Positions 1 to 33,129 of a stretch of DNA of 64,000 bases are shown here, piece after piece. Each line of letters starts with the position of its first letter. The first letter of the stretch is position 1. The stretch is from a virus (lineage: Duplodnaviria; Caudoviricetes): IMG/VR virus record IMGVR_UViG_3300025306_000003, positions 569 through 64,568 of that record. One strand, written 5' to 3'. A program made the translations under genes and the position numbers. The notes beneath the pieces are model-generated. The model was given only the letters and a program-made list of their open reading frames with translations. It was not told where the DNA came from and did no database searches.

Positions 1-1369
1 GATTCAACAGATCTTTGATGTCGGTTTCTTTACGCAGCAACACCATCGGATCCATCCCCAACAGCGTCCTAAATCCTGTGACAGTCAGCTTGCCCAAATT
101 CCCAGGCAGCGGATCTAAGTTAATATTCGCTCTCGCTTCGTCAATCGTCATGACTTCCTGTGCGAGATACACAGCGTCAATCGTGGACTGCTTACCCATG
201 TCTCTCGGGTCGATGTCAGTCCAGAAAAATTCCATCTCCGCAATTGACTTGTTGCCTGTAAGCTGCGCGAGTCTGGGCAGCACATGCATCGTGATCTTGG
301 TTGCCAGCACTTGCGCTAATGGCTTTACGGCTTCTCGCAAAGTCGCTGACATGGTTACATCCGCCGTGGATCTGTTTACGTCGGCTTGGATTCCGAAGTC
401 CATCGGGTGGAGGTCAAAACAAATTGCGAGCACACGGGTTTGCAATTCGTGGAACTGAAGGAACAATCCCTCGTCACCGTTAGGTTTAAGTGGAATCGGT
501 TCGGGGCGTAACTTGCTCCCATATCCACCGACGAATCCCGGCGAACCTCTGCCACGCAATTCATTTTCCCAATACACGCGAAATGCATAGCGCTGATCCT
601 CATCCACTTCGTCGCCAAGATAAATCAACATGGACGGATACGCTTCGCTGGCGATCTGCCGCTGGTAGCTCGACAAATTCGTGAGCGTGTCCATCACTTC
701 GACTGCAGTCTCAAACGGCGAGAGCCCGAACGGGTCGAAGCTCCGCTTGCGCATCATGATGTATTCAATTTCGGAATCGAGGAACTGCGTTTGAATCTTG
801 CCGTCATCCAAGACTTGCAGCCATCGCGGCATCTTGGGATTCCCATCCCACTTTCTGTTCAATGCAATGGTAAATCCCGGCACGACCTCCATTCCCAACA
901 CATCGTTACCCACGATGTTGACAGGCTTCTCCACGTACTCCCAACATCCGGCGTCGAAGATCAAAACGTCTTCCACGATCTGTCCGAGGAACGAACACAA
1001 ATCATCGTCAGACGAATTCGGTCTCGAAAGCAAATCCTTCGCGATTCGGGTAGCCTTTTGAAACTCCTCTTTCTTTTCCTTTGCGTCCTGCACGTTCTTC
1101 GGTTGCAGTCCCCACGTGAGAGATTGGATGGCGTTACGAATCAACCGGATTGCTCTTGACGGCAGCGGAGCTTCCGAGAACATCATCAAGTCTTTTCGGG
1201 ATCTGCGCAAACGCCTGCGCTGAAACTGCTGCTTGCCTGCGGAGGGTGCCCACAGGAACGAAGTTCCCCCGGCGTCTTTCATGGAAGTGCGCTTCCGCTG
1301 TCCGGCCTCCAATTGCTGAAGCGGGCGTGCAGGTTTCGATAATCCATAATTTCTAAGAAGTTCGAACAT
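1..1369 (-). CDS. Phage portal protein (HK97-like family), 3' end runs off the window
   Basis: Absent from the ORF track because there is no stop in the window. Manual translation from ATG at 1369 gives MFELLRNYG...AIRLIRNAIQSLTW...LLSRPN...IVEDVLIFDAG...FGLSPFE...FDLHPMDFG...MTIDEARA, matching portal motifs (PN, GxSP, MTxNExR). Lies downstream of terL. Confidence 0.85.
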   Translation of the reverse strand, partial: MFELLRNYGLSKPARPLQQLEAGQRKRTSMKDAGGTSFLWAPSAGKQQFQRRRLRRSRKDLMMFSEAPLPSRAIRLIRNAIQSLTWGLQPKNVQDAKEKKEEFQKATRIAKDLLSRPNSSDDDLCSFLGQIVEDVLIFDAGCWEYVEKPVNIVGNDVLGMEVVPGFTIALNRKWDGNPKMPRWLQVLDDGKIQTQFLDSEIEYIMMRKRSFDPFGLSPFETAVEVMDTLTNLSSYQRQIASEAYPSMLIYLGDEVDEDQRYAFRVYWENELRGRGSPGFVGGYGSKLRPEPIPLKPNGDEGLFLQFHELQTRVLAICFDLHPMDFGIQADVNRSTADVTMSATLREAVKPLAQVLATKITMHVLPRLAQLTGNKSIAEMEFFWTDIDPRDMGKQSTIDAVYLAQEVMTIDEARANINLDPLPGNLGKLTVTGFRTLLGMDPMVLLRKETDIKDLLN

Positions 1370-1370
1370 G

Positions 1371-1577
1371 CTACCCCCTGAGTTTTACGAAAGGATCTTC
1401 GTTCTTCTCGAAGCGTCCGTCCAATGAAAGCCCTTTCTCTTCCACCCACACATGTACTGCGGACACAGCTTGCGCAAATCCAAAATGATCTTCGTGATCT
1501 GGATGGATCTCGGCCAGCAAAGCATCAAGATGTTCGAGCAACTCTCGCAGCATGTTTTCTACCCATCGCTTTGGCAA
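1371..1577 (-). CDS. Hypothetical protein
   Basis: ORF tightly packed against the portal start; no recognisable motif. Confidence 0.5.
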   Translation of the reverse strand: MPKRWVENMLRELLEHLDALLAEIHPDHEDHFGFAQAVSAVHVWVEEKGLSLDGRFEKNEDPFVKLRG

Positions 1578-1779
1578 AGGTTTTTACTTGAGTGCCGATC
1601 CCATACGCAACTGCCAAAACCAATTCGAGAATCAGCATCGGGAGCCAAAAGAGCGTAAGCAATCCCAACTTCGCTTCCCCAGGCTCAGTGTTGTAGTTAT
1701 AAATATATGCGAGTGTGAACAGCAGTCCGCACAGCAAGTATGCTGCACAGAGTGAAATAATCCACAGCGTGATCATCAA
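1525..1779 (-). CDS. Small membrane protein (2 predicted TM segments)
   Basis: Two hydrophobic stretches; GGAGG RBS upstream. Confidence 0.6.
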   Translation of the reverse strand: MMITLWIISLCAAYLLCGLLFTLAYIYNYNTEPGEAKLGLLTLFWLPMLILELVLAVAYGIGTQVKTFAKAMGRKHAARVARTS

Positions 1780-2000
1780 TCCTCCAAGTCTTTAGGGTCA
1801 ATGCCATTTTCGACAATCATCTGATTGTATAACGCGGCGTTATCCGCAATCAGTTCGTCATCGTCTTCGGGATCTACTTCCAAGGCAGCATGTTTCATAC
1901 GGGCTTCGCTGTGCTGCTTGAGCGTACCTTTCGACCCGCCAAAATACTTTCGCGCCTCTTTATCCAATTCTTTAAGACTCATTTCAACCCTTTCAACCAT
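1776..2000 (-). CDS. Hypothetical acidic protein
   Basis: Overlaps both neighbours in the minus-strand operon. Confidence 0.55.
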   Translation of the reverse strand: MVERVEMSLKELDKEARKYFGGSKGTLKQHSEARMKHAALEVDPEDDDELIADNAALYNQMIVENGIDPKDLED

Positions 2001-2959
2001 CCAGAAAAAACAATCGGATGGATGTAGCTGTTCAATGCCTTATCGCGACCGTTGTTCAAGTGCGTAGCGACAACATCTCCAATGTGATTGCGAGAGGCTT
2101 TGTATTCTTTCAACGTGGCCGGTTTGGGGAGACTCTTGATCATCTGCCGAGCTATCGTGGTCGCGCCCAATGTACGCCAGTTATGTGGAGTGAATCCATA
2201 CGAGTCCCCGTGCGTGAGGCTGCTGGAATATTTCAACACAGTCGCGTAGGAAACATCGCCGAAGATTCTGCCATTTGGTCCAGCAGCTTTTGCCCTCGAT
2301 ACGAGATCTTTTGCAAGTTTAGAATCATGTATCTGATACGAATTGGCAATCTTGTCTTTGCCGACAAACTTTGCAAATACCTTCCCACCCTTTTCAACGA
2401 TGTGCCTACCCTCAAGCGTGCGTGCGCCATAGATCGGGGGTTTCGTAGTTTCATCTGCCACGCGCATGAACGTGTGCGAGATTAAACGCATGATTGCAGC
2501 TTCCGGTTTGTTGCCTGTCATCTTGGCAGTCAATCTGTCCGCAACAGGTTCCAATTCAAGAATCTTTTCCCAGTGTTGTGCTCCACGTTCGGCAACTGCT
2601 TTGGGCAGGTAGATTGGTTGGAACTTGCCCTTCTCATTTACGCTGTGGACCACATGACCTTTGTCATCAGGCTTCGTGTTCACGTATGTACGCAGATACG
2701 CTTTTGCATTGGGAACCGTGACGCCCTCGTGCATCTTCAACCGTGCTTCGGTCAGCTTCTCGCGCAACATCCATAGCCCTTGACCCTTTGCGTTTTTCTT
2801 TGCTGCCCACTTATCGAGCTTCGCGATCCGACTGTCTGAGTGCTCCTGCACAGTGAATGTCTTACCCTTGGAAGATGTCTTCGAGTACGTCCTGATCTTC
2901 ACAGCCTCAAGGATTGCAAGCCTCAGCGCATCGGTGATCTCGTCTGCAAAAGTTCTCAT
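1979..2959 (-). CDS. DNA topoisomerase IB (bacterial/viral type) with an N-terminal leader
   Basis: Catalytic pentad visible: FMR(V), FVGK, HNWRT, LNN...NSY(IHP), plus YGARTL..RHI as in poxvirus/bacterial TopIB. Confidence 0.85.
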   Translation of the reverse strand: MRTFADEITDALRLAILEAVKIRTYSKTSSKGKTFTVQEHSDSRIAKLDKWAAKKNAKGQGLWMLREKLTEARLKMHEGVTVPNAKAYLRTYVNTKPDDKGHVVHSVNEKGKFQPIYLPKAVAERGAQHWEKILELEPVADRLTAKMTGNKPEAAIMRLISHTFMRVADETTKPPIYGARTLEGRHIVEKGGKVFAKFVGKDKIANSYQIHDSKLAKDLVSRAKAAGPNGRIFGDVSYATVLKYSSSLTHGDSYGFTPHNWRTLGATTIARQMIKSLPKPATLKEYKASRNHIGDVVATHLNNGRDKALNSYIHPIVFSGWLKGLK

Positions 2960-6301: not shown

Positions 6302-7942
6302 TCAGAACGCAAACGCTTTCTTTGAGCGCTCAAACGCGAGGATGGCTCCACAAGTCGCATCGGGGCCATCATCGTGTGAGTCGAAAGGAAAATTATCCCA
6401 CTGATTGTAATACGTAGTGCTGAGATGGCTGGCAAAGAAAGTGCGAGTCTTAATGACGGGTTCCAAATTATAAATCCGTTGGATCTTATTGGCAGTCTGC
6501 GTAAAGGTTCTAAGCGGCACTGTGATATTACGTTCTTTGGCGATCTTCTTGAGGTATGGAAGCAAAACACCGAAGCCGCCGTTGTCCTCGTAGTACAATG
6601 TCTTGATCGGATATGCCTGTACCAACCGCAATGCCTCTTCGCACTGCAATTCAACACGCGCCTGATTCAACCAAACATGCAGTACCCAATAAAAATTGTG
6701 CGTCAAGCTCTCCTTGGCGATGACATAATCTTTTCCATCTTTGTTTTTACCCATAAGTTCCCTACCCTGAAGGGTAATCGACTTACAAGCAACGACTGCG
6801 ATACAAGCGTAATCCGCAGCCTGAAAGTTGGATTGCTTTGGATCGCTTGGATCCCAGTACGCGATGACTCGGTAAGAATCGTCCATCTCGGCGATGAATT
6901 CCTGTGCATCGAACTTCTGAAACTTGACAGAATCGTAAACAAGTTCTTCGTCGGAAGCCTGCTTGTTCATGTACTCCAACGAGTACGCCCTGGCTCCGAT
7001 CTCTTCCCGTCTCTGATGCAGCTTCTCAAGCGGCCATCTCTCAGGCCACAAGGCTGATCCGTCTGTCTTCTTATTTCCAATCGGCCACTGTTCGTCGTGC
7101 TCATCTTGAGGAATGTTCTCCGCCCTGTAGAGTTTCCCATCCCAGGACTTTTGACGCATCAGAGTTCCGACCATGGACTCGGGGTTCAAGAAATTTCCGA
7201 TCACGAAAATGTCGCCTGGACTGGCAATCAAATTAACAAGGGTCGTTCTGAAGCGGTTCAGGAACTTTGCACGCTGATAATCAGTGGCGACTGTATCTGT
7301 GTCTTGAGGATCATCGAAGACCATCGCATCCGGTCGCCACTTGCCCTCTTTCAATCCGCGCACGTGACTGCCCATTGTACGCGCTTCGACGATTGCGCCC
7401 GATGTCACTTTGATACGGCTATCGTTCCAACTGACAAATTGCCCTTTGAAATCCATCATGGGCGACAGATGAGGATAATCGTCCAAGAGAGCTTGATTGC
7501 CTATGCTGCGATCCAGCGTATTTTGAAGCGTAGAATAATGATTCCAGAATGCCCCACCGGATCCGCCGAACAAACAGATGTACCATTTATCCTGTCTGGC
7601 TAACCACCATAATGGCGCGGCGAAGAGCAGGAAGGTGGACTTACCGCTGTCCCTGGGCTCGCATCTGACAATGCGCTTGTCTGTTTTTGGGCTCTGAACG
7701 CTGTCAATAAGATCTTGGTGATGCTCGCCCATTGCGCAATCAAAGTGCGCAGACAAGTAATGATAGATAAATTCAATGAACCAACGCCGAGCTTTCTCTT
7801 TGGCGACGATGTGTGCAAGGCTGGCGCGTTCCTTTATAAGAAAGAACGGCTGCTTAGCCTGCATTATCGGCTTGGTGTCACTGATCTCCGCGATGAGAGC
7901 ACTTTTACGAATCATGAAAGCCTTATTTGTGGATACTGTCAA
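6302..7942 (-). CDS. terL: Terminase large subunit
   Basis: Walker A PRDSGKST, Walker B VFDD, RNase H-like nuclease WDPS ... YEDN ... HDDGPDA. Confidence 0.93.
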   Translation of the reverse strand: MTVSTNKAFMIRKSALIAEISDTKPIMQAKQPFFLIKERASLAHIVAKEKARRWFIEFIYHYLSAHFDCAMGEHHQDLIDSVQSPKTDKRIVRCEPRDSGKSTFLLFAAPLWWLARQDKWYICLFGGSGGAFWNHYSTLQNTLDRSIGNQALLDDYPHLSPMMDFKGQFVSWNDSRIKVTSGAIVEARTMGSHVRGLKEGKWRPDAMVFDDPQDTDTVATDYQRAKFLNRFRTTLVNLIASPGDIFVIGNFLNPESMVGTLMRQKSWDGKLYRAENIPQDEHDEQWPIGNKKTDGSALWPERWPLEKLHQRREEIGARAYSLEYMNKQASDEELVYDSVKFQKFDAQEFIAEMDDSYRVIAYWDPSDPKQSNFQAADYACIAVVACKSITLQGRELMGKNKDGKDYVIAKESLTHNFYWVLHVWLNQARVELQCEEALRLVQAYPIKTLYYEDNGGFGVLLPYLKKIAKERNITVPLRTFTQTANKIQRIYNLEPVIKTRTFFASHLSTTYYNQWDNFPFDSHDDGPDATCGAILAFERSKKAFAF

Positions 7943-9924: not shown

Positions 9925-10188
9925 TCAATTCACCTTTCTCAGTAAACTGCTGGATGCTTCGATGATGCGCTTCTCTTCTTTCTTTGGAGCAAGTACCGAC
10001 CAGCCCAGATCCGCCTTCATGATTACCGGCACATGGAGTGCTCCACATTTCCTGCACACCCTCTCGTCGATTGAATACGTCGGCACCAATGTCAACTGCG
10101 TTATAAACTCATTGGTGATACTCACTGACTGTGGCTGATGCAGACTCATGTCTGCTGAGCATTGCAGGCATTTGAACACGTCTCTCAC
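9925..10188 (-). CDS. Zinc-ribbon protein
   Basis: CLQC...CRKC; GTGA overlap with the terS stop. Confidence 0.6.
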   Translation of the reverse strand: MRDVFKCLQCSADMSLHQPQSVSITNEFITQLTLVPTYSIDERVCRKCGALHVPVIMKADLGWSVLAPKKEEKRIIEASSSLLRKVN

Positions 10189-10871
10189 GATACTTTCTCC
10201 TCCGGTTGATGCCGCGTGGCTATAGCTTCCAACTCGGCCAATTCACTATCTGAAAGTAAACTCATAGGGTCTTGAGCAATGGTCTGAGTATTCGGGTTAT
10301 TCACTCTAGCCCGCAATGCATCCATTGAAATAATCAGCCCCCACTGGGTAAGCTGTGAGGCCATGTCCATTACCACGCGCCACGACAATCCAAGATTCCC
10401 CGCACGCTTTGCGACCGCGATGTGATACTCGGCCTGGGAGAAGAACCAGCCCACGAATTTCTCTGGATTGAACTCAGCTACGATCTTTGCGATCTCGCCC
10501 AGAATCTTCTGTTTGTCTTTGAAGATCATGACCGATGAGACGCCGAACAAATCGGCAATCTCAATGTCACGCATTCCTTGGTGGAGTAATTCTGCAACGC
10601 AGCCTAATCTTTGTGTGCGAGTCAGGAGTTTTGCATCGACAGCACCTGATTTGATGTCCCGCAAAAGCGCCAGTGCATTTTTGGATACTTTCATCGGCTT
10701 TTCTTCGACTTCACCGACAGAAACGCCTGATTTCCGCTTCATCAGCTTCAATCCCGAGACGTATTTCTTGCGGCTTTCTTCCGAGAACGTCCTGCCGTTC
10801 TTATCGCCAGTAGTCCCCAGTCTTTCAAAGTGGCTTTGTGGGCCATCCTCATCAAACTTTTCGTCGTCCAT
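10185..10871 (-). CDS. terS: Probable terminase small subunit (HTH)
   Basis: HTH GMRDIEIADLFGVSSVMIFKD and C-terminal LSDSELAEL motif; first gene after a terminator/promoter upstream of terL. Confidence 0.65.
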   Translation of the reverse strand: MDDEKFDEDGPQSHFERLGTTGDKNGRTFSEESRKKYVSGLKLMKRKSGVSVGEVEEKPMKVSKNALALLRDIKSGAVDAKLLTRTQRLGCVAELLHQGMRDIEIADLFGVSSVMIFKDKQKILGEIAKIVAEFNPEKFVGWFFSQAEYHIAVAKRAGNLGLSWRVVMDMASQLTQWGLIISMDALRARVNNPNTQTIAQDPMSLLSDSELAELEAIATRHQPEEKVS

Positions 10872-10939
10872 TGCCCCATTTCCCTGTATATGTTAACCAA
10901 CTTCCAAATTATCATCTTTTTACTACTCTAATTACAACA

Positions 10940-10975
10940 AAAAAGGACCATAAACCTTTCGGCCATGATCCTTTT
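10940..10975 (-). terminator. Probable intrinsic terminator after the basic-peptide gene
   Basis: Imperfect stem AAAAGGA...TCCTTTT followed by a T run on the minus strand. Confidence 0.5.
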
Positions 10976-10998
10976 AAGCCCTCGTATTGACGGGATTG

Positions 10999-11208
10999 TT
11001 ACCGAACTTTCCGTACAGTTTTGGTGCGCTTCACCGGACGAACGGTTTTCTGTCGAGCCGCCCTATTCTTCGCAGCCCTTGCGTTCTGCATCCTGACATT
11101 CTTCTGCGCAGACTTGCTCAATCTGAGCTTCGAAGTCGGCACGAACGTGTAACCTTTCGGCGTGCCTCGTGCTCCACGTGCCCCCGCATTTGCTCCGCCT
11201 CCGCTCAT
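10999..11208 (-). CDS. Small Gly-leader, Arg/Lys-rich peptide (69 aa)
   Basis: MSGGGANAGARGARG...RKVR; no Asp/Glu; GGAGGTG RBS; ATGA overlap with the aminotransferase stop. Confidence 0.75.
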   Translation of the reverse strand: MSGGGANAGARGARGTPKGYTFVPTSKLRLSKSAQKNVRMQNARAAKNRAARQKTVRPVKRTKTVRKVR

Positions 11209-12407
11209 AATCTCACCTCCTTTACAGTAGACTCGAAGACCTCTGCAATCTTCTGTACATCTTTGTCAGAAAGATTCAGCGGAGGAAAGAAGTAGACTAC
11301 GTTACCGCCTGTTCCCAGCAGCAATAACCCTTTGGCGAAGCATTTTTGCATTACACGCAACACAAGCGTGTGCAGCCCAGAACCTTCGGCCTTCACATTC
11401 AATTCAACCCCAAGCATGTGCCCGTCTCCACGCACATCCTTAATCACATTATGGTGTGCACGCCAAATCCCAACCAATGCCCTTTTCAGAGCGCGAGCAC
11501 TCGCAGCAAAGAGCTTTTGAAAACTTTCGCGTTGCAAGATCTCAATGGTCTTCAACGCGGCTGCACAACTCACGGGGTTTCCCCCAAATGTCGAAGAGTG
11601 CACTCCAGAATTCCAATTGGCGACCGCTTCATTATAAATCACAGCGCTCAGCGGCAACCCATTAGCAATCCCCTTGGCTACACAAATCATATCTGGCTCA
11701 ATCCCGTAGCGCTCAACCGCGAACATGGGGCCGCTTCTACAGAAGCCGGTCTGCACTTCATCCACGACCAACAAGATTCCATAAAACGTACACAACTCAC
11801 GTAACAACTTCATAAACTTGGAAGTCGCCTTAAGCACACCCCCGCTCCCGAGGATCGGCTCTACAAAGATTGCGGCAACCTCCCAAGGGTCCACCAAATG
11901 TCGGAACAAAGATCCTTCCAAATACATTTCGTCATTGTATGGAATACGAAATGCATTCGAGTCGAAACCCGTGTTGTAAAACGTGTAGCTACTCTGCAGT
12001 GTCAAAGCGCCCAAACTGTAACCGTGAAATCCACCGATACAACATACAAATTTCCTGCGCCCCGTAGAAAGGGTCGCCATCTTCATAGCAGACTCTATGG
12101 CCTCGGCACCCGAACACGCAAAGAAAACCTCCTTACGGGACTTCCCAGGCGCAATCGCAGCAAGCTTCTCCGCAAGTTCAACAGGTGTCTCAGACAGAAA
12201 CTCCCCTGCAGGCATCGCGGGCAAGCGTTTCATTTGAGTGATTGCGGCGTCTACAATCTCGGAGTGCGCATGCCCCAAAGGCACAGTCATCATCCCACTG
12301 GTCGCATCCAAGTAAGTGTTCCCACGCGTGTCTGTCACGTAAGCACCATACGCACACGCCACAATCAAATCAGGAAACAGATGATAAGACAACCTACTGT
12401 TGTGCAT
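11205..12407 (-). CDS. Class III PLP-dependent aminotransferase (ArgD/GabT family)
   Basis: SGAEA, FHG, EPILGSGG, DEVQTG, AKG (PLP lysine), STFGGN. Confidence 0.92.
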   Translation of the reverse strand: MHNSRLSYHLFPDLIVACAYGAYVTDTRGNTYLDATSGMMTVPLGHAHSEIVDAAITQMKRLPAMPAGEFLSETPVELAEKLAAIAPGKSRKEVFFACSGAEAIESAMKMATLSTGRRKFVCCIGGFHGYSLGALTLQSSYTFYNTGFDSNAFRIPYNDEMYLEGSLFRHLVDPWEVAAIFVEPILGSGGVLKATSKFMKLLRELCTFYGILLVVDEVQTGFCRSGPMFAVERYGIEPDMICVAKGIANGLPLSAVIYNEAVANWNSGVHSSTFGGNPVSCAAALKTIEILQRESFQKLFAASARALKRALVGIWRAHHNVIKDVRGDGHMLGVELNVKAEGSGLHTLVLRVMQKCFAKGLLLLGTGGNVVYFFPPLNLSDKDVQKIAEVFESTVKEVRL

Positions 12408-13734
12408 CTTTTTTAGACTTCTTCCTAACGATACCGTCTTTTGCTTTCTTAGGAGCCTTCACCATCGCATTCTTCTTGCGCATACTGATAATACTTGGAA
12501 GCCATTGATACACCGGCCCGTGCGGGATCCCCGCAATGATTTCTTCCTTATGCTGCTCCCCACTGTACATGAGCACAACTTCTGGCTTCACAACCCTCAC
12601 CATCTGAGCAAAGCCTTTGAAGAAGTACTCGGTTGAAATGCCCCCCGCGTCGTGCCTGGGGGAAAACGCCTGACATTGCATGCTTACCACAGGCGCATGC
12701 TGTGGGATTCCCAAAAAACTAAACTCAAAGCTCGCGTCGTCGGTCCAATTCATATCAGGGATGATCTTGATACCAGCTTCCTGCCAGTAACGCGCAACCC
12801 AACGGGATCTATAGATCTCATACATCTGCAACACACGGGGTGCATCCAACCACATCGAGAAGTTCGGGGATATAATCGACCCCCAACCTTGCTCTAGCAA
12901 CATTTGCGTGGTTCCCGCCACATCGCTCCAAACACCTGCAAAGCGATCATCCCAAGAGTAATATCCGAGCACGGCACCCTGAACGATTTCAATCTGCCTC
13001 TGCGGCGGGAGCCATGCAGTCAGAAACAAAGTCTTCTCGGGCGTGAACTCAGGCTGTCTCCAGTAAACTTCCGTAGGCACCTGATCGGAAAGCATATCCA
13101 ATCTCAAATCAGGAATGCCCCACTTATTTGAGGACGGCAGAATAACTTCATCATTATTCACCAATGCCACAACAGATGTTGCTTCCTGTGCAACGTCCCT
13201 CTCACGGTCAGTCGGTTCCGATGACTCGGGAATATCCGGCATGATGTTCTCTTTGGGAAACATCTTGTCGAGATCCAACGTGAAATCGGGAATCTCAATC
13301 ATGCTGGCAAAGTTCGGGAGATCGAGATCGGCGGCAAAGTTCCTCAGACCATCTTCGGTGATCCTCCCGTACCTGCTCGATATCAACAGGATTTTCTGCT
13401 TTGCTTCCTTCATGTCTTTCGCTTCCACCCAAACCACCGGCAGAGGCGGAATCTTCCAACCCTCTTTTGCCATCTGCTTCAAGACTGAATCGCGCTGATG
13501 ACCATCGAGGATGTACGTGATCTTCTTGAATTTCCACGCCAAGAACGGAAACGAAACGCCATGCTGAATCAGAGATGCACGAATCTTGTCTGCATCTTTT
13601 TGAGACAAAGATTTCAAATCGCCCTGCAACGGAACCAAGGATTCAATCGCCACTGTATCAGCAGCCTTACACGTAACTTTCAGTTCAGACATCTTTGTAT
13701 GGACACGTCGCGTCTTTGCAACGGCCTCCTTCAA
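12394..13734 (-). CDS. ParB/Srx-like N-terminal domain fused to a DUF4417-like domain
   Basis: N-term: IRASLIQHG...P...ILDGHQR. C-term: DDRF...SPNFSMWLDAP...IYRSRW...WQEAGIKIIP..W......F.GIP, the DUF4417 pattern as recalled. Confidence 0.8.
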   Translation of the reverse strand: MKEAVAKTRRVHTKMSELKVTCKAADTVAIESLVPLQGDLKSLSQKDADKIRASLIQHGVSFPFLAWKFKKITYILDGHQRDSVLKQMAKEGWKIPPLPVVWVEAKDMKEAKQKILLISSRYGRITEDGLRNFAADLDLPNFASMIEIPDFTLDLDKMFPKENIMPDIPESSEPTDRERDVAQEATSVVALVNNDEVILPSSNKWGIPDLRLDMLSDQVPTEVYWRQPEFTPEKTLFLTAWLPPQRQIEIVQGAVLGYYSWDDRFAGVWSDVAGTTQMLLEQGWGSIISPNFSMWLDAPRVLQMYEIYRSRWVARYWQEAGIKIIPDMNWTDDASFEFSFLGIPQHAPVVSMQCQAFSPRHDAGGISTEYFFKGFAQMVRVVKPEVVLMYSGEQHKEEIIAGIPHGPVYQWLPSIISMRKKNAMVKAPKKAKDGIVRKKSKKDAQQ

Positions 13735-14019
13735 GATGAGTGTGAATGAATTTGTCGGGAGCGCACCTAACCACCACTTTGCAATATCTTATAAGAGCCG
13801 CTCTGTGACTGCGTTGCATCGCTCCTCCGCAAAAAGACACGAAACGCCGATTGAGTGCCGACAGGTAACGAACGATCCCATCGGCACCCTTTCTACGGAA
13901 AATCCGCGCTACAAACTGTATCTCATCATATAAACCCCATCGATCAGAAGTTGACATCGACAACCTCAACAAGTACCAGTCTTTACGTGTCAAACAGTGA
14001 AAGCAAGAACTATTTTGCC

Positions 14020-14442
14020 CTATTCCCCATTCCAAACTCCCGCATCAAGCAATCGCTCAATAAGCTTGACCGCATCAACACCCCAGAACTTGAACAGAGT
14101 ATCCCGCGTGCTCACGCCTGGATCCGGCTTCACAACCTCTTCGTCGAATTTGATAACGTCGAAACCTATCGCCAATCCCTTAATGGATCTCACGTCGAAG
14201 AACTCAGCCAGATCCCTCTCGAAGTGCGCATTGAATGCCCCATGCGTTTCATGAAAGCATTTTTTCAACTCTCGAATGGAAAACATCACTTGCCCCCTTT
14301 GCCTACAAGCGCCAACGTGGATTTCGCACGGCGTGAGCGTTTGAGCTTCACGTGCTCGACAACCGCAAAGTCTTTCTGTACTGCAGAGCCTCCAAATTGC
14401 AACGCCACAGATAGCAACTGAGGACTTGCGCAGTAAGGACAA
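14020..14442 (-). CDS. Hypothetical protein (probable start at MFSIR, ~14286)
   Basis: ORF track; operon position. Confidence 0.5.
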   Translation of the reverse strand: MSLLRKSSVAICGVAIWRLCSTERLCGCRAREAQTLTPCEIHVGACRQRGQVMFSIRELKKCFHETHGAFNAHFERDLAEFFDVRSIKGLAIGFDVIKFDEEVVKPDPGVSTRDTLFKFWGVDAVKLIERLLDAGVWNGE

Positions 14443-14564
14443 ATCTCAGTTTGACTAAAACTGTAAATCGTTTCGCAATTCAAGCACAACACAGCTTCTC
14501 CCAACGGGATCCCCTGTACTACACGCTTGGGAGGTTCACCCAACCATAATATTGGCATATTCAA
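14286..14564 (-). CDS. Zinc-ribbon protein
   Basis: CLNC...CPYC; AAGGA RBS. Confidence 0.6.
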   Translation of the reverse strand: MNMPILWLGEPPKRVVQGIPLGEAVLCLNCETIYSFSQTEICPYCASPQLLSVALQFGGSAVQKDFAVVEHVKLKRSRRAKSTLALVGKGGK

Positions 14565-14759
14565 TCCTTTCTTTTAGGATGGACCCTGCAGAGGCTCGGG
14601 TGTGTACGCACCCAACATCTGGCGATGCGCCCCTGCAGAGATAAATTGCTTCTACACAACTTTCAAATTACGTTTTTCCAATTCGGGGATTGTACGGATT
14701 TTCTTGCTCGTCGGTGGCGACGACTGGAATGTCCACGTCAAATTCAACATGTACTCGTT

Positions 14760-15095
14760 TCATTTCCCCACCTTCCTTGCTCGTTCGAGCCAGTCGCTAG
14801 CTTCCCCCAAACCATATATCTGATTAAAAAATCTGCATCGTTCCTCGTCGAGGATAATAGATGGTATTGCTTTCTTCACCAACTCCTTTAATTGTACATA
14901 CTCGGGCTCTCCATCTTTAACAGCCTGCTTGTATCCTGCGTAGTACCCATGCTTAAAATCATCACTCAATCGAGTGTCGTCGGATACAGACCAAACTATA
15001 GTTCCGCACGAATCATGATGTTCCTGAAATGTAACTTGGTGGCCGTCAACCTCATGTTTGCAGTTTGGACACCACCAAATATTTCCATTACTCAT
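14760..15095 (-). CDS. Modular small protein (Zn-finger N-term, W-x-ERA C-term)
   Basis: CPNC...HDSC; ends LKELVKKA...WLERARKVGK. Confidence 0.65.
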   Translation of the reverse strand: MSNGNIWWCPNCKHEVDGHQVTFQEHHDSCGTIVWSVSDDTRLSDDFKHGYYAGYKQAVKDGEPEYVQLKELVKKAIPSIILDEERCRFFNQIYGLGEASDWLERARKVGK

Positions 15096-15382
15096 TTCTC
15101 CACCATCTTTCTTGCGCGTTCACACCATATAGGGTTATCCAACGAATCAACTATACTTAAAGCATCTAACACCAGCTCCCGCAGGGTGGCGTTCTCGATT
15201 TTCAACAGTTCAACGGTCTGTGCGTAACTACCACGCTGGTCAATCTCGTCCTTGAGCTTGGCGTTCTCGGCTTCGAGTTCTGGGTATAAACATTCCAAAC
15301 ATTTGTCATCTTCGCTACAGTTGTCCTTATCACAAACAAAGTACCCACCACATTTTGGACAGTCATGGCAATGATCACTCAT
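15092..15382 (-). CDS. Modular small protein (Cys-rich N-term, coiled coil, W-x-ERA C-term)
   Basis: CPKC..C..C..CLEC, LEAENAKLK, WCERARKMVEK. Confidence 0.65.
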   Translation of the reverse strand: MSDHCHDCPKCGGYFVCDKDNCSEDDKCLECLYPELEAENAKLKDEIDQRGSYAQTVELLKIENATLRELVLDALSIVDSLDNPIWCERARKMVEK

Positions 15383-15392
15383 CCCTGCCTCC

Positions 15393-15599
15393 TTATAATT
15401 TCAGCCACCAACATATTGTTTGCTTGTCATAATCAGTTTTTATCGCACCTACCCAGTCGTACTTATTTGTTTCAGCGCCATCTTCGTAGACTTTACCATT
15501 GAGCACCCAAATACTGATCCACTTTGACGGGCGCTTGAACACGGAAAACGGTGCCGCTATAACTGCAAATAGAGATCCGAAAAATGTTCTACGTTTCAT
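15393..15599 (-). CDS. Small protein with a Tat-like N-terminus
   Basis: MKRRTFFGSLFAVIAA (twin-arginine-like). Confidence 0.55.
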   Translation of the reverse strand: MKRRTFFGSLFAVIAAPFSVFKRPSKWISIWVLNGKVYEDGAETNKYDWVGAIKTDYDKQTICWWLKL

Positions 15600-16111
15600 T
15601 TTCCTACCTCTTTCTTAGCCCGTTCAATCCATCCTGTGCAATCCACCGAATAGACCGTGTTGGGCCATTTCATTGCTTCTTGAACTAAAACTTTCAGTAC
15701 ATCGTTCTTGGATTTTAACGTTTCATATGCACACACTAAGCACCAGGAATATCTGGTGATGCCTTCTTTGTGAAGCTCACAAATAGGCAATGACAACTTC
15801 CATTTCTGAAGATCGCTTAATAATTCTATCCATTGATCGCAATCATCCCCCCATCTATCCGACGATTTATGATCTAAATCATGTAGGTATTCCAACCGAT
15901 CTTTGTCCTTGGCCATAATAATGTTATCAGATTTAAGTTTAATGTTCTCGGCTTCAAGTTTAGTGAATCTCCTATCCGTTTCACAGCAGTCACGGCAAAC
16001 AGTATAGTCACCAAAAGCAGCAACACTCCGACCGCAGTACTTGCATTTCGCTGGATAATCGTGTTTCTGGTTTCCAAATACGTTACACTTACTGCCTAAT
16101 GGATCACTCAT
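15596..16111 (-). CDS. Modular small protein (Zn-finger, coiled coil, W-x-ERA C-term)
   Basis: CKYC...CRDC, LEAENIKLK, WIERAKKEVGK. Confidence 0.65.
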   Translation of the reverse strand: MSDPLGSKCNVFGNQKHDYPAKCKYCGRSVAAFGDYTVCRDCCETDRRFTKLEAENIKLKSDNIIMAKDKDRLEYLHDLDHKSSDRWGDDCDQWIELLSDLQKWKLSLPICELHKEGITRYSWCLVCAYETLKSKNDVLKVLVQEAMKWPNTVYSVDCTGWIERAKKEVGK

Positions 16112-16506
16112 TCCCCGCCTCCTGCTGCATCATTACTGGGCTCTTGGATTGGACCGGCCCACGTGTCGTTGCAAGAATCAATCTGGACACCGATCACAAT
16201 GTAGTTGTTCCACCCGGACTTGCTCTTCATCCAATAATACGCTTCTGTGTCTGGGACTGCCCCTGTCTGCCACGTCAACTCGCTTGCAGCAAGATCGTAT
16301 TCCAGCTTGCCTATGATCTCGTTGGCGTGGTCGAAGGCTAGACGTTCATCGGAGAGTTGGATTTTCAGCCGCTCAATCTCTTTATTCCCCTCTTCCCAAT
16401 TGAGGAGGGCGGTTTCGCGTTCCAATTTGAGCTTGGCGTTCTCGGCTTCGAGTTTGGTGATGTGCTCATCCCTCACCAATATCTCATTGATATAATTGTC
16501 ACTCAT
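16108..16506 (-). CDS. Modular coiled-coil protein
   Basis: LEAENAKLK module; ATGA overlap. Confidence 0.6.
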   Translation of the reverse strand: MSDNYINEILVRDEHITKLEAENAKLKLERETALLNWEEGNKEIERLKIQLSDERLAFDHANEIIGKLEYDLAASELTWQTGAVPDTEAYYWMKSKSGWNNYIVIGVQIDSCNDTWAGPIQEPSNDAAGGGE

Positions 16507-16795
16507 CCCCGCACTCCTTGGTTTTGCATCGGTCGCATTTCTTGAAAGCGTTATGGTAGACCATATACCCAGTATTGTCGCTCATATTGCCGGGACTGTA
16601 AGTATTAACAAATTCTGGTGGAGCAACCTCCACACATTCAACTCTACTTAAAAAGTATACACATAGATGACCATGCCGAAGAATGCATGAACCACAGTAT
16701 TTCCCTTTTGGAATAGTTAAGGTCACTTGTAATTCACTCATCACCGCCTCCTTCCCGTAGTGCCTTGGTTGCAGCATGGAATCTAATCGCGCCAA
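16499..16795 (-). CDS. Cys-rich hypothetical protein (probable start at MSELQ, ~16741)
   Basis: CGSC...C...CDRC. Confidence 0.5.
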   Translation of the reverse strand: MARLDSMLQPRHYGKEAVMSELQVTLTIPKGKYCGSCILRHGHLCVYFLSRVECVEVAPPEFVNTYSPGNMSDNTGYMVYHNAFKKCDRCKTKECGDE

Positions 16796-17099
16796 GTTCC
16801 ATGAGTCTAAATTTCGCTTGCAATGTTTCTACACCACCGATATCAGTGAAAATAAAGAGTACTTCCAGTAGGTCCTTTAGCGCGGCGGCGTAGCGGTCGC
16901 GCTCCAGCTTCGCTTCTCCAGCCACCTTGGTCATGTTTGACAGCAGGTTTATATATTCATCCCGCTCCTTCTGGCACTCGGCAAGTTGCTTTTCGAGTTC
17001 CAGAATTCTTGCCTGTTCAAGAGAGTAACTTGACAGCCCGCACATGCAGATAGTGCGGTTCCCATGGTACACATGCACAAACTCATTGCAGTAGGTCAT
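16734..17099 (-). CDS. Coiled-coil hypothetical protein
   Basis: ARILELEKQLAE...ERD repeats. Confidence 0.55.
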   Translation of the reverse strand: MTYCNEFVHVYHGNRTICMCGLSSYSLEQARILELEKQLAECQKERDEYINLLSNMTKVAGEAKLERDRYAAALKDLLEVLFIFTDIGGVETLQAKFRLMELGAIRFHAATKALREGGGDE

Positions 17100-17533
17100 A
17101 CGTGCTCCTCCACAAAATCTTCAATGAGAATACCGTTCTGTACACACCATGCCGACAACAACTCTTTGAAAAATTCGTCGGAAACCGTAACGAATTGTCG
17201 CTTATCGAACTTCAAATGCTGAATCAAAACCAAGCGATCATCTTTTCGTGTGAAGTACTTCTTCTCAGTCTTTTTGAAGATCGAAGCCGTTTCACACTTT
17301 GCACGCTTTTTTACTTCTACATACAAAGCAGGAAAAGACAAACCGTCTGGCGAAACCAATTTGTCCTTGATCACACGCGGAGGATTCGTATCTAACGTAT
17401 GTTCGGGGCCAAAACCCGTCACGTCATCCGCGACGGTTGCGTATGAACCTAAACCGACTCGCGTTCTCCTCCGACCTCCTGGAAACAAACGCGCCGCTTT
17501 TCTTTCGCTGTCTTTCCACCCGCTCTGATTCAT
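17096..17533 (-). CDS. PD-(D/E)xK nuclease, Holliday-junction-resolvase-like
   Basis: GWKDSERKAARLF.GGRR...DD...VEVKKR, an Hjc-like E...D...ExK pattern. Confidence 0.65.
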   Translation of the reverse strand: MNQSGWKDSERKAARLFPGGRRRTRVGLGSYATVADDVTGFGPEHTLDTNPPRVIKDKLVSPDGLSFPALYVEVKKRAKCETASIFKKTEKKYFTRKDDRLVLIQHLKFDKRQFVTVSDEFFKELLSAWCVQNGILIEDFVEEHV

Positions 17534-29296: not shown

Positions 29297-29587
29297 TTAA
29301 GACCTCCAAGTCTTCTTTTGCCGCGAATGGAAAATCATGATACCCGCGTCGGAACTTGAGAGAAAACCTCCTCCTCGAACAGGAATTGAAAAGAACGTAT
29401 CTGGAATGCCGCACCTGACTACTTGCAACTTTCCAGTATCTGAATTGTAAGCTCTAGCTCTACGAATCATCGCGCCCGAGGGATACGTGATCTCTTCCGG
29501 TTCCAACCACGTACCCAAAATGTCGGAAGGCGCTTCGGTGCGCATACCAAAGTAGTTCGCAACACGCGGACGCGGCTCTTTCCTCAT
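29297..29587 (-). CDS. Hypothetical protein
   Basis: ATGA overlap with the polymerase stop. Confidence 0.55.
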   Translation of the reverse strand: MRKEPRPRVANYFGMRTEAPSDILGTWLEPEEITYPSGAMIRRARAYNSDTGKLQVVRCGIPDTFFSIPVRGGGFLSSSDAGIMIFHSRQKKTWRS

Positions 29588-32500: not shown

Positions 32501-33129
32501 TCGGATCTCGCCACAAACACCTTCGGATTTTTGGGGACGGGCTTGGTCAGAAGCTCTTGTGCCAACTGCAAATCGGAAATGAACTGATCAATTACAGTCG
32601 GGTCAAAGTTCCTGACACGCATCACGTAACTGGGATGCCAAGTCGGCACAACAAAAATCGATTTGTTTCTGTACCTAAAAATCGTTCCACGCATCTTGGC
32701 AATACCATCGCGATTAAGCAACGCCATACACGGCGTGTTGCCCAATGCGACGATGACCTTAGGCTGACACTTCGAGATTGTTTCCTCCAAGTATTTTGAG
32801 CAACAGTAAACTTCCTGATCGGTAGGCGCTCTATTTGCCTTTCCAAGAGTCGGCCGACACTTCGCGGCATTCGCAATCGACACCTGAAGCGGATCAATGC
32901 CAACAGCACGCATTGCAAGCCGCAACGTCTGTCCAGCTTTACCGATGAAAGGGACTCCCTGTGCAACTTCGTCCTCTCCAGGGGCTTCGCCGACGAAGAG
33001 CAATCCACCAGCACCAATATTTGGGAGGTATGGTCGAACTTGCCCCTCAAAATTCGCAGTTCTGTTGATATTTAGTGGACAAACATCGCAGCCCCTGAAG
33101 TTGGGATCGAACGCGCTCTTTTTTGCCAT
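29584..33129 (-). CDS. polA: Family A DNA polymerase with an N-terminal family-4-like uracil-DNA glycosylase domain, 3'-5' exonuclease and an intein
   Basis: UDG: CDVCPL, GEAPG, PFIG, KCRP, HPS. Exo: DVE, YD, YNGLD. Pol: DSSQIEMR, R..AKSVNFG..YG, QHD. Confidence 0.93.
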   Translation of the reverse strand: MAKKSAFDPNFRGCDVCPLNINRTANFEGQVRPYLPNIGAGGLLFVGEAPGEDEVAQGVPFIGKAGQTLRLAMRAVGIDPLQVSIANAAKCRPTLGKANRAPTDQEVYCCSKYLEETISKCQPKVIVALGNTPCMALLNRDGIAKMRGTIFRYRNKSIFVVPTWHPSYVMRVRNFDPTVIDQFISDLQLAQELLTKPVPKNPKVFVARSEHEALTLLGWVKGETAIDVEGEGAKILSIAMTFDDDYKALVVPRRLITAKVYAKFQQILADSKIAKVGQNFNGYDRGMLEGVFVCDVENYAWDTMYGSYLWDERRGIHDLDMVAARFAKMGGYDYEFVEYRRKLQGYKRESNAMYSEFMSHLSSVPEDLLCKYNGLDACVTHIAADQQRTHLTEDQQRLGRLYAFVSRAYEAMEKNGIGFDMPYSKKLSKDLEKRIRHLERRVRLAVGDPSINVNSGPQMGAALFDRLKLHKKLPREGIQEIGNMKTPTGRWSVSDPVITILNKYVKNPVLEAFSDFKDLSKDKGTFVDGIWEIVGADDRARAPLFLHGTDCVSADTLIWTSEGLAFADVLCDHKEGFVSRRIGILSPDGPRNTSYTYVARRRTTLNLTFGCGLHLCCTPEHPLLTETGWKEAADLTSADYIQTGFGANFFPSVSTCSSEEAELLGMFLSDGHITNRENSGHYSLSISNRDIYVLKRVNAISQVLYARETSWDASNGSVHITGKDVTAKWLMDFPLNGAAEKHVPAWILGGDKSAMCAFVRGVSLDSSWCVVRNGKCLQYLIRFRSLDKFRLEIVQQVLWNLGVRCHFKRTEYKHPVRRTGNATAPYYYSLDVTGHSILRYLSEVGCLSQKQAGIAKVFRAKIPHTRSWSEHNFRKDGLYVKLMHREPGPVIPVYDLTVPVTHGFVANAVMNHNTGRASYRLHNIKKKKELLDQFVAAPGHVLVKFDSSQIEMRVLAEMSEDKALLQIFIDDADFHEETRQFLFGEKPDDAELADWQRTVAKSVNFGTAYGLDADGLYDQLCRKISNFSMSPQEVADFHRRYYQRFPQLLKWQRGMIAFAKKHGYVENLFGRRRHLNVIDKHGANQAINTPIQSSAHDVLLVQIAMLLEAYPTHHYKFIMEQHDAVYLEIPKKYLKKEMAFVQNIMNNPDTLKWLGKKLKVPIKADMKYGIALGSLEKEEAV
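30391..31479 (-). mobile_element. Intein (363 aa) with a LAGLIDADG homing endonuclease
   Basis: HGTD|CVSADT...CTPEHP...LLGMFLSDG...VYDLTV...NHN|TGR; removal restores the GTxTGR polymerase motif. Confidence 0.93.

Follow-up and report, generated by a model that had tools for sequence, protein, structure and literature searches.

The question raised by this locus is why a freshwater phage should encode, in a single operon, a ParB-like protein fused to a DUF4417 domain, a vitamin-B6 (PLP) enzyme and a very small, very basic peptide with a glycine-rich start, and whether the three act together. The window analyzed is a 64,000-nucleotide stretch of IMG/VR record IMGVR_UViG_3300025306_000003. The first-pass annotation had described three translationally coupled genes closed by a terminator just before terS, and had proposed that the DUF4417 enzyme and the aminotransferase install an amine-containing base modification during packaging, or activate or attach the peptide's N-terminus to DNA as a protamine-like shield. 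Re-examination of the sequence confirmed that the genes and their arrangement are as described. The proposed function was supported only in part, as set out below. The features of the locus are as follows.

13685..14035 (-), upstream 116-aa Cys-rich ORF
12394..13734 (-), ParB-like + DUF4417 fusion protein, 446 aa from TTG 13734 or 432 aa from ATG 13692
13294..13668 (-), ParB/sulfiredoxin-fold N-terminal domain (about residues 23-147)
13168..13293 (-), acidic, low-confidence linker (residues 148-189)
12439..13167 (-), DUF4417 domain, a predicted (beta/alpha) barrel (residues 190-432)
11205..12407 (-), divergent class-III (fold-type I) PLP enzyme, 400 aa
11216..11220 (-), GGAGG ribosome-binding site, inside the end of the PLP-enzyme gene
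10999..11208 (-), 69-aa glycine-tagged, protamine-like basic peptide
10935..10975 (-), intrinsic terminator, a GAAA-loop hairpin followed by a U run

The first and second genes of the operon overlap by 14 bp (12394-12407) and the second and third by 4 bp (ATGA, 11205-11208). The peptide starts MSGGGANAGARGARG and contains 11 Arg, 9 Lys and no Asp or Glu. The GGAGG lies 7 nt before its ATG, and the peptide is the only Gly-tagged ORF with a ribosome-binding site in the window. The terminator hairpin at 10941-10975 was missed by a simple terminator scan. However, it folds at -16.8 kcal/mol with a z score of -3.25, and none of 200 shuffled sequences was as good. A 220-nt contig from another study matched positions 12290-12509 without a single difference, and bridges the junction between the aminotransferase and DUF4417 genes. 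The start of the first gene may be ATG 13692, which gives the 432-aa protein of the database gene call. That ATG overlaps the stop of the 116-aa ORF, which may therefore be translationally coupled, although it has no Pfam or PHROG hit and may not belong to the module.

The placement of the operon beside the terminase or terS is not shown. The 228-aa gene that follows the terminator (10185-10871) had no hit in Pfam, PHROGs or NCBIfam, and its only look-alikes in the Atlas, at a score of 0.90, were HTH_23 and sigma-70 region 4 proteins. The large terminase gene (6302-7942) starts about 3 kb further on. In relatives the module lies after the replication genes and before terL and portal, that is, between replication and packaging genes.

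The domains of the first protein were then examined. The Pfam model of DUF4417 (PF14386) matched residues 254-397 with 108.2 bits against a cut-off of 28.9 (E 4.4e-31), and phrog_940 matched over the full length (E 4.1e-46). The Pfam ParB model, PF02195, gave no hit at E <= 0.01, although it is recorded on 6 of the listed homologues. Nevertheless, a family profile compared with PDB chains matched ParB proteins at E 7e-10 to 6e-6 (4umk, 7e-10; 7bnk, 5e-9; 6sdk, 8e-9), and the full-length structural model, with a mean pLDDT of 81, matched sulfiredoxin 6ky4 (Z 8.5, rmsd 3.0, 89 residues aligned) and ParB-N 5k5d (Z 8.5). The domain has the motif LDGHQRD, in which Gly78 is invariant in 36 relatives and which resembles DGQQR, the nucleotide-binding motif of the NTPases DpdB and SspE (PMC10164549) where ParB has GxxRxxA. 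The linker was modeled with pLDDT below 50 at residues 147-155 and 158-189.

The DUF4417 domain modeled alone as a (beta/alpha) barrel with a pLDDT of 89.2 and a pTM of 0.87. When the model was compared with 48,161 chains using VIA-align, the four best matches were all tRNA/DNA-guanine transglycosylases (TGTs): arcTGT 1iq8 (Z 10.5, rmsd 4.2, 208 residues aligned), the DNA preQ0 insertase DpdA 7ui4 (Z 10.3, rmsd 3.7, 180 aligned), QTRT2 6fv5 (Z 10.2) and bacterial TGT 3unt (Z 9.1). The next row, a generic barrel, scored 8.9, so that the best match is only about 1.5 Z above generic TIM barrels. The same three chains were best with the full-length model, where 3unt tied with a generic barrel (6rg0) at Z 8.8. 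Cap10 (9ntn) scored Z 7.5. The likeness to TGTs is at the level of fold only, and other comparisons gave no support beyond a generic barrel. Foldseek found no match at E <= 0.001 for the domain and ranked generic barrels first, with TGT 4gcx at rank 47 (E 0.037). An hhalign comparison of the DUF4417 alignment with a phage DpdA alignment, which was narrow (19 sequences at >= 70% identity), gave a probability of 0.44%, and the Pfam TGT model (PF01702) matched neither the protein nor anything else in the record. TGTs have a catalytic Asp pair and a structural zinc site. Among 59 DUF4417 sequences, with 19% mean column identity, Asp262 was the only invariant acidic residue and no Cys or His was conserved, so a zinc site is unlikely. 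Ser293 of the PNFS motif and a YRSRWxARYWQEAG helix are nearly invariant. The subfamily to which the window's protein belongs has Asn where most members have Asp in this motif (PDFS).

The first-pass annotation had also suggested that DUF4417 genes are often followed by ORFs with a glycine-rich start, and this rule was found to hold. At least 6 Gly in a 12-residue window occurred just downstream of DUF4417 in 18 of 44 dereplicated IMG/VR loci, against 8 of 245 control gene ends of the same loci (p 4e-11). When genome and metagenome loci were added, the figures were 26 of 64 against 23 of 335 (p 7e-11). The glycine codons differ between loci and the start codons overlap the DUF4417 stop, indicating that the signal is in the protein and not in the DNA. 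However, 38 of the 64 dereplicated loci failed this criterion, only 10 of 64 have a start codon directly followed by Gly-Gly, some of them doubtful, and none starts MSGG. In three relatives the same Gly-run and basic tail are carried on the C-terminus of ParB-DUF4417 itself. Other relatives encode a leadered peptide (...ELIGN-GGGG...), and a small C39-like Cys peptidase lies beside the leadered or fused forms in 18 of 78 and 16 of 48 loci. The Q, C, H and D of this peptidase are invariant and its best PDB match is the double-glycine peptidase domain of ComA (5xe8 and 3k8u; E 1.5e-4), although the family falls below the Pfam cut-off (best E 2.5e-4, 6 of 11 members). These observations fit a need for a free glycine-rich end. 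In bacteriocin and RiPP export, C39 peptidases cut double-glycine leaders, but here no transporter lies nearby. Moreover, an HMM built from the peptidases of 9 relatives found nothing in the six-frame translation of the window at E <= 10, and the window's peptide has no leader.

The first-pass annotation had called the aminotransferase intact, which holds for the fold and the PLP motifs but not for the substrate-binding arginines. PF00202 matched over the full length with 317.6 bits against a cut-off of 30.5 (E 1.3e-94). All 25 NCBIfam families listed, among them acetylornithine, GABA, BioA, putrescine, daptide and LysJ enzymes, scored below their curated cut-offs, the best being NF004426 with 364.1 bits against 552. 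Close PDB relatives (7vno, 9wqz and 5wya) include amino-acid racemases and epimerases, and the nearest homologues are bacterial proteins of the "GABA / acetylornithine aminotransferase family", at no more than 44% identity, with no close relative among 5.8 billion clusters. Of 171 columns highly conserved among the homologues, 112 are kept, including the PLP-binding motifs (DEVQTG at residue 216 and AKG at 244), and 59 are changed. The changes include R130Y, R372Y and E188S, at positions where 119 of 119 homologues have Arg, Arg and Glu. These would be the carboxylate-binding and gating residues of GabT (R141, R398 and E211). The G+C content of the gene is like that of its surroundings. The co-occurrence of the aminotransferase with DUF4417, whose absence the first-pass annotation had named as part of what would refute its proposal, was not found. 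There was no class-III homologue in 78 and 48 DUF4417 loci (0 of 126) and none in 45 whole phage records, nor was a DegT-type enzyme present in any of the 45. Co-occurrence thus gives the PLP enzyme no support, and it may be a passenger.

Several known systems offer precedents or comparisons. In type IV CBASS, the TGT-like Cap10 and the QueC-like Cap9 act on the CD-NTase CdnD, and Cap10 holds its processed, glycine-rich Gly2 tail (GGSGGS...) (bioRxiv 10.1101/2025.04.06.647259), and in a related system Gly2 of QatB enters QatC (PMC13376578). The free N-terminal amine is the reactive group. However, the present module is a phage module rather than a defense module, its barrel is fused to ParB, its tag starts with Ser, its partner is a tiny basic peptide and not a nucleotidyltransferase, and Cap10 is only a middling fold match. 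Furthermore, the QueC model (PF06508) had no match in the record, which is 80% complete, or in any of 45 DUF4417 phage records, 7 of them at least 90% complete, while the control was detected in 13 of 14 genomes. On this evidence a Cap9-type nucleobase conjugation cannot be encoded by the phage, and the locus is not a copy of CBASS deazaguanylation. In the Dpd 7-deazaguanine DNA modification system, DpdA, a TGT-fold enzyme acting on DNA, needs the ParB-like ATPase DpdB, which has a DGQQR motif (PMC10164549). The window joins a DGHQR ParB domain to a barrel whose second-best fold match is DpdA, but it shows no profile similarity to the phage DpdA alignment and has no preQ0 pathway genes, and the Dpd system lacks a conserved peptide partner. 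Finally, the same ParB-CTPase-fold + DUF4417 architecture was reported as enriched in phages and prophages, alongside ParB-methylase fusions (bioRxiv 10.1101/2025.10.10.680097). Four relatives of the window's ParB domain carry an N6/N4 DNA methylase in place of DUF4417. No function, no fold for DUF4417, no partner gene and no mention of the glycine-tagged partner, the C39-like peptidase or the PLP enzyme were found in that preprint, although its supplementary figures, which were not seen, may hold neighborhood data. No paper describing the pairing of DUF4417 with a glycine-tagged partner was found.

The best reading is that the locus is one member of a widespread phage module, with no function described in print, in which a DUF4417 barrel enzyme works on a partner whose free N-terminus is glycine-rich. 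Here the enzyme is fused to a domain of the ParB NTPase/DNA-clamp type. In this phage the partner would be the 69-aa peptide with the charge of a protamine. Since it starts Met-Ser-Gly-Gly-Gly, removal of Met would expose the tag without any peptidase. In this view the ParB domain puts the enzyme on replicated phage DNA, the transglycosylase-like barrel takes the N-terminal tail of the peptide into its pocket, as Cap10 holds the tail of CdnD, and the barrel then modifies the peptide or loads it onto DNA just before packaging. The PLP enzyme would be a lineage-specific accessory that, having lost both arginines, most likely acts on an amine without a neighboring carboxylate, the peptide's own N-terminal amine being the obvious candidate, interconverted with a carbonyl. 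The analysis itself establishes the order of the genes, their domains, the fold as modeled, the recurrent pairing and the remodeled PLP site. Binding of the tail in the barrel, NTP binding, any modification of peptide or base, any peptide-DNA adduct, DNA as the target and the role of the PLP enzyme are inferred from sequence and predicted structure, without expression or protein data. That DUF4417 and the peptide are functional partners is considered likely. That the PLP enzyme belongs to the same pathway is somewhat less likely than not, and the statement as a whole remains tentative.

The possibility that the aminotransferase is a passenger, an auxiliary metabolic gene or racemase-like enzyme acting on host metabolites that happened to land between DUF4417 and its partner, is about as plausible as the full model. 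Its absence from the other loci and records and the bacterial affinities of its homologues favor this view. However, it is inserted exactly between the two conserved partners, with overlaps at both ends, and carries the ribosome-binding site of the peptide in its last codons. Furthermore, its many changes at conserved columns, including both arginines, together with retention of the PLP motifs and the lack of a close relative, indicate long residence under a changed selection.

It was also considered that no covalent chemistry occurs, and that DUF4417 is an adaptor or chaperone that recognizes the glycine tag and delivers tagged proteins, here a DNA-condensing peptide, to the DNA or procapsid for co-packaging and injection. 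This is unlikely but not excluded. The tagged partners in other phages have unrelated bodies (phrog_38558, phrog_6170 and phrog_5057, all of unknown function), the module sits next to the packaging genes, few candidate catalytic residues are invariant, and Cap10 itself acts as a holder of the tail in the published structure. On the other hand, Asp262, Ser293 and the conserved helix look like an active site or a fixed interface, and a dedicated peptidase and a PLP enzyme suggest chemistry at the N-terminus.

Less likely still is a base exchange of the DpdA/DpdB type, the first alternative of the first-pass annotation, in which ParB-DUF4417 swaps a DNA base for a small amine-bearing base or precursor that the PLP enzyme helps to make, and the peptide is only a DNA-binding helper or an unrelated packaged counter-ion. 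The fold matches, the attached DGxQR domain, the ParB-methylase fusions and the position before packaging are compatible with this reading. However, no base-precursor genes were found, the QueC and TGT models being absent from the record, and none of the 20 large window proteins scanned is a nucleotide-modifying enzyme other than a UDG-like domain on the polymerase. Moreover, among the loci and records examined the PLP enzyme is unique to this phage, whereas the peptide partner is the conserved feature.

Similarly unlikely, though it is not excluded by the evidence, is that ParB-DUF4417 is a transglycosylase-type enzyme that covalently joins the N-terminus of the peptide to phage DNA, either by base exchange with the terminal amine, or a nucleobase carried on it, as the incoming group, or through a carbonyl that the PLP enzyme makes from the N-terminal Ser/Gly amine. 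The packaged genome would then carry protamine-like peptides as a new kind of DNA hypermodification that shields it from host nucleases.

The weakest reading, that ParB-DUF4417 is a nuclease that helps terminase cutting or host-DNA breakdown and that the small ORF is incidental, rests on the label of phrog_940, on RefSeq annotation of mycobacteriophage homologues and on ParB-fold nucleases such as 5k5a ("ParB domain protein nuclease"), but these labels are untested, the same proteins are "hypothetical" or "DNA modification methylase" in other records, no nuclease was among the top fold matches of the barrel, and the glycine-tagged partner, the fusion and the peptidase are left unexplained.

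DUF4417 is common in phages, tblastn having found it in 525 of 50,697 phage records, 385 of them from mycobacteriophages. The ParB fusion is known, yet no paper that gives it a function was found. A transglycosylase-like barrel, an enriched partner with a free glycine-rich N-terminus and, in relatives, a dedicated double-glycine-type peptidase or a direct fusion turn this anonymous domain into a testable hypothesis of N-terminus-directed chemistry on, or next to, phage DNA at the time of packaging. The hypothesis parallels protein deazaguanylation in CBASS, discovered only in 2025, and the DpdA/DpdB system, but the module lacks their precursor enzymes. This phage adds a natural experiment, a PLP enzyme with a rebuilt substrate pocket wedged between enzyme and peptide. 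If the module marks or coats DNA, it bears on restriction evasion, on how phages neutralize DNA charge in the capsid, and on new enzymes for joining peptides to nucleic acids.

On the minus strand of the IMG/VR virus record, which is linear, 64.6 kb long and 80% complete by CheckV, three overlapping ORFs were found, with overlaps of 14 bp and 4 bp. The three genes and the other features of the window considered here are as follows.

12394-13734, minus strand: ParB-like + DUF4417 protein, 446 aa.
11205-12407, minus strand: class-III PLP enzyme, 400 aa.
10999-11208, minus strand: glycine-tagged basic peptide, 69 aa.
13685-14035, minus strand: upstream Cys-rich ORF, 116 aa.
14020-17100: the rest of a run of small Cys-rich ORFs, of which the 116-aa ORF is the last; none has a family hit.
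6302-7942: large terminase.
29584-33129, minus strand: DNA polymerase A, 1181 aa, with an N-terminal uracil-DNA-glycosylase-superfamily domain and an intein with a LAGLIDADG-like insert.
36564-37295, minus strand: MoxR-type AAA protein.

The 69-aa ORF has a GGAGG 7 nt before its ATG and is followed by a GAAA-loop hairpin and a U run. A simple terminator scan did not list this terminator because its loop rule is too strict, but folding showed the hairpin (-16.8 kcal/mol, z -3.25). The first gene may really start at ATG 13692, the start used by the database gene call (P0121, 432 aa), and this ATG overlaps the stop of the 116-aa ORF. A 220-nt contig from a different study matches 12290-12509 without a difference, indicating that the aminotransferase/DUF4417 junction is not an assembly artefact, although the contig is from the same phage and is not independent evolutionary evidence. 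Short contigs identical to parts of 10800-14100 occur in lake-water metagenomes of a second study (three runs, X3-X5), therefore the same phage is present beyond the likely source samples. The first-pass annotation had described three translationally coupled genes closed by a terminator, and that observation is confirmed.

The first gene carries PF14386 (DUF4417) on residues 254-397 (E 4.4e-31) and matches phrog_940 over its full length. A profile of 36 relatives, compared with PDB sequences, matched ParB, Noc and Spo0J chains with the N-terminal 140 residues (E 7e-10 and weaker) and nothing with the barrel. The motif LDGHQRD resembles the DGQQR motif of the ParB-superfamily NTPases DpdB and SspE (PMC10164549). 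The nearest relative, P0122, is 46% identical over 95% of the query and is encoded on a 4.2-kb contig. Single-protein scans of IMG/VR for close relatives of the DUF4417 protein and of the aminotransferase found none, and neither did a metagenome scan with an alignment of the window protein and P0122.

The second gene encodes a full-length class-III PLP enzyme (PF00202, 317.6 bits) that lies below every NCBIfam cut-off, the best score being 364 against 552. Its nearest relative among 5.8 billion clusters is 44% identical and bacterial. Among phage records, tblastn hits were 34% identical or less and were mostly unannotated fragments or records that also hold host DNA. The third gene, which has no Pfam, PHROG or NCBIfam hit, encodes 11 Arg, 9 Lys and no Asp or Glu. 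The next gene (228 aa), named terS in the first-pass annotation, encodes an HTH / sigma-region-4-like protein without a family hit, and the name terS is a guess. The rest of the window is a phage replication and structural set comprising the PolA, RecA, gp32-like, SbcCD-like, primase, DnaB, UvsW-like and a sigma factor. No nucleotide-precursor enzymes were among the 20 large proteins scanned. The MoxR-type protein matches only the C-terminal part of its family (AAA lid, bpMoxR positions 120-178), which is compatible with the intron-split MoxR gene proposed separately in the first-pass annotation.

The DUF4417 domain alone, modelled with a 59-sequence alignment, gave a good prediction (pLDDT 89.2, pTM 0.87) of a barrel of about seven strand-helix units. 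When the model was compared by VIA-align with 48,161 representative chains, four transglycosylases ranked first: archaeosine TGT 1iq8 (Z 10.5, rmsd 4.2, 208 aligned), the DNA preQ0 insertase DpdA 7ui4 (Z 10.3, rmsd 3.7, 180 aligned), QTRT2 6fv5 (Z 10.2) and bacterial TGT 3unt (Z 9.1). Generic TIM barrels followed at 8.9 and below, and Cap10 (9ntn) scored 7.5. The full-length model gave much the same order, with a generic barrel (6rg0) tied with 3unt at Z 8.8. However, other results argue against a specific TGT relationship. Foldseek found nothing at E <= 0.001 and listed generic barrels first, with TGT at rank 47. Pfam TGT did not hit, although this is weak evidence against a transglycosylase relationship, since bona fide phage DpdA homologues (P0169-P0288, relatives of phage 9g DpdA) carry no precomputed Pfam domain in the protein collection either. 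An hhalign comparison with a phage DpdA alignment gave a probability of 0.44%, but that alignment was narrow because the search had returned only proteins of >= 70% identity. TGTs have a zinc site and an Asp pair; no Cys or His is conserved in the 59 DUF4417 sequences. A search of the ESM Atlas with the domain gave no usable hit. We therefore describe the predicted domain as a TGT-like barrel at fold level, not as a family member. Asp262 is the only invariant residue in 59 sequences, while Ser293 (P-D/N-F-S) and the helix YRSRWxARYWQEAG are nearly invariant. Complex prediction of the domain with the 69-aa peptide, made without controls, scored 0.24 and 0.00 against a mark of 0.32, and no conclusion is drawn from it.

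To determine whether the peptide is a recurrent partner, 78 IMG/VR loci and 48 genome or metagenome loci with DUF4417 relatives were collected; the two sets share some contigs. Of the IMG/VR loci dereplicated at 70% identity, 18 of 44 have at least 6 Gly in a 12-residue window within -60 to +260 nt of the DUF4417 stop, against 8 of 245 control gene ends of the same loci (Fisher p 4e-11). When all loci were combined (70 clusters, 64 testable) under a slightly different rule, the counts were 26 of 64 against 23 of 335 (p 7e-11). Small, very basic ORFs were found in 20 of 64 against 51 of 335 (p 0.004), a control rate that is inflated by spurious ORFs. Neither rule was satisfied by 28 of 64, although by eye several of these do have such ORFs that the thresholds missed.

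Three layouts occur. In the first, the partner starts directly with Met-Gly-Gly, which held in 10 of 64 clusters in this sample, some of them doubtful. In the second, a short leader precedes the Gly run, as in ...DELIGCK..., ...SILGGDGK... and ...TELIGNGGGG.... In the third, the Gly run and basic tail are fused to the C-terminus of ParB-DUF4417, as in the proteins P0127 and P0128 and in locus L081, an Acidobacteria MAG contig. In L081 the fused gene (1148-2572, plus strand; ...NESIGN-GGGGGGGG...) is followed by a C39-like peptidase, a 224-aa gene and terL. The leadered and fused layouts come with a small (about 120-150 aa), usually convergent Cys peptidase, which is present in 18 of 78 and 16 of 48 loci. 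Members include the following.

L017, 6992-7435, minus strand: C39-like peptidase.
L021, 7500-7928, minus strand: C39-like peptidase.
L081, 2569-2958, minus strand: C39-like peptidase.

The Gln, Cys, His and Asp of this peptidase family are invariant, its profile best matches the ComA double-glycine peptidase domain (E 1.5e-4), and Pfam C39 hits 6 of 11 members below the cut-off. Taken together, the three layouts suggest that the system needs a free glycine-rich end. The window has the first layout, but its peptide starts Met-Ser-Gly-Gly-Gly; no such peptidase was found in the window, and this is its only tagged ORF.

Partners in other phages have unrelated bodies of unknown function. In two named, cultivable phages, Mycobacterium phage Whirlwind (gene 116, L079:3623-4009, plus strand) and Streptococcus phage Javan394 (L080:5241-6056, plus strand), the DUF4417 gene is followed by proteins of unknown function (phrog_6170, phrog_5057). 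One starts MGRGRS, overlapping the DUF4417 stop, and the other has an internal GGRGASSGKMGGG stretch. These are possible model systems, and Whirlwind genes 115/116 are a cultivable example of the simple pair, whereas the phage of the window is an uncultured freshwater phage. In relatives, the module lies after the replication genes (primase, DnaB, PolA) and before terL and portal.

The PLP enzyme does not travel with DUF4417. No homologue was found by blastp in 78 and 48 loci (0 of each), PF00202 was found in 0 of 45 whole records, and DegT-type enzymes in 0 of 45. Nor is it an ordinary copy. At the 171 columns shared by at least 90% of its 119 nearest homologues, the enzyme keeps 112, including the PLP motifs, but has Tyr for Arg at residues 130 and 372 and Ser for Glu at 188, where all 119 homologues agree. 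PDB alignments show the same replacements, FHGRT against FHGYS and ...IRLIPPL against ...VYFFPPL, and the close PDB relatives include racemases and epimerases of this fold. These positions would correspond to the two carboxylate-binding arginines and the gating glutamate of GABA aminotransferase. By inference only, the pocket would no longer suit dicarboxylic or omega-amino acids, whereas a substrate amine with no nearby carboxylate would fit, and the N-terminus of a strongly cationic peptide is one.

The possibility was considered that the enzyme is a recent accidental passenger. The exact position of the gene between two conserved partners, its overlaps, and its G+C, which matches the surroundings, argue against this without excluding it. 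A secreted-peptide (RiPP) reading is likewise not excluded, but no transporter was found. A lipoprotein signal was considered for the ...LIGC... leaders and rejected because no hydrophobic signal segment precedes them. A DNA signal in the glycine run, such as a pac or parS-like G-rich site, was rejected because the codons vary between loci while the reading frame and the start codon, which often overlaps the DUF4417 stop, are kept, indicating that the constraint is on the protein.

The ParB-DUF4417 architecture is in print without a function, and DUF4417 also appears as a gene label beside the terminase genes of Streptococcus phage A25. Literature searches on DUF4417, on PF14386, on glycine-rich proteins with ParB, terminase or C39, and on phage-encoded deazaguanylation found no description of the DUF4417/glycine-tag pairing, although papers such as PMC5478533 and PMC3482391 were judged from their listings, and the supplementary files of the ParB-CTPase preprint, which were not covered, may bear on the neighbourhood claim. 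The deazaguanylation papers concerned defence systems, and none of those on the glycine-rich topic was relevant by title or abstract. New in this window are the class-III PLP insertion with its rebuilt pocket and the Ser-first tag.

Published precedents exist for parts of such a system. Cap10 holds the Gly2 tail of CdnD, which Cap9 has joined to a deazaguanine, and the authors note that the free N9 might allow insertion into nucleic acid. QatB Gly2 enters QatC, and DpdA needs the ParB-like ATPase DpdB (PMC10164549). However, several results argue against a simple copy of these systems: no QueC-like gene was found here or in relatives (0 of 45), no preQ0 genes were found, and no sequence similarity to TGT or to the narrow DpdA alignment was found. 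The proposal in the first-pass annotation, that the DUF4417 enzyme and the aminotransferase may install an amine-containing base modification or attach the peptide to DNA, is partly supported. The overlapping genes, the recurrent pairing and the altered PLP site are shown by the analysis, whereas entry of the tail into the barrel, any chemistry, the action on DNA and the still unproven link to the aminotransferase are inferred. The locus combines a ParB domain and a predicted transglycosylase-like barrel with an N-terminal-glycine partner, and the PLP gene is set between the ParB-DUF4417 gene and the partner gene. In the reading that we prefer, which remains tentative as a whole, the ParB domain would tether the enzyme to replicated DNA, the barrel would receive the N-terminal tail of the peptide, and the peptide would then be modified or loaded on DNA before packaging, with the PLP enzyme editing the amine of the tail in this lineage.
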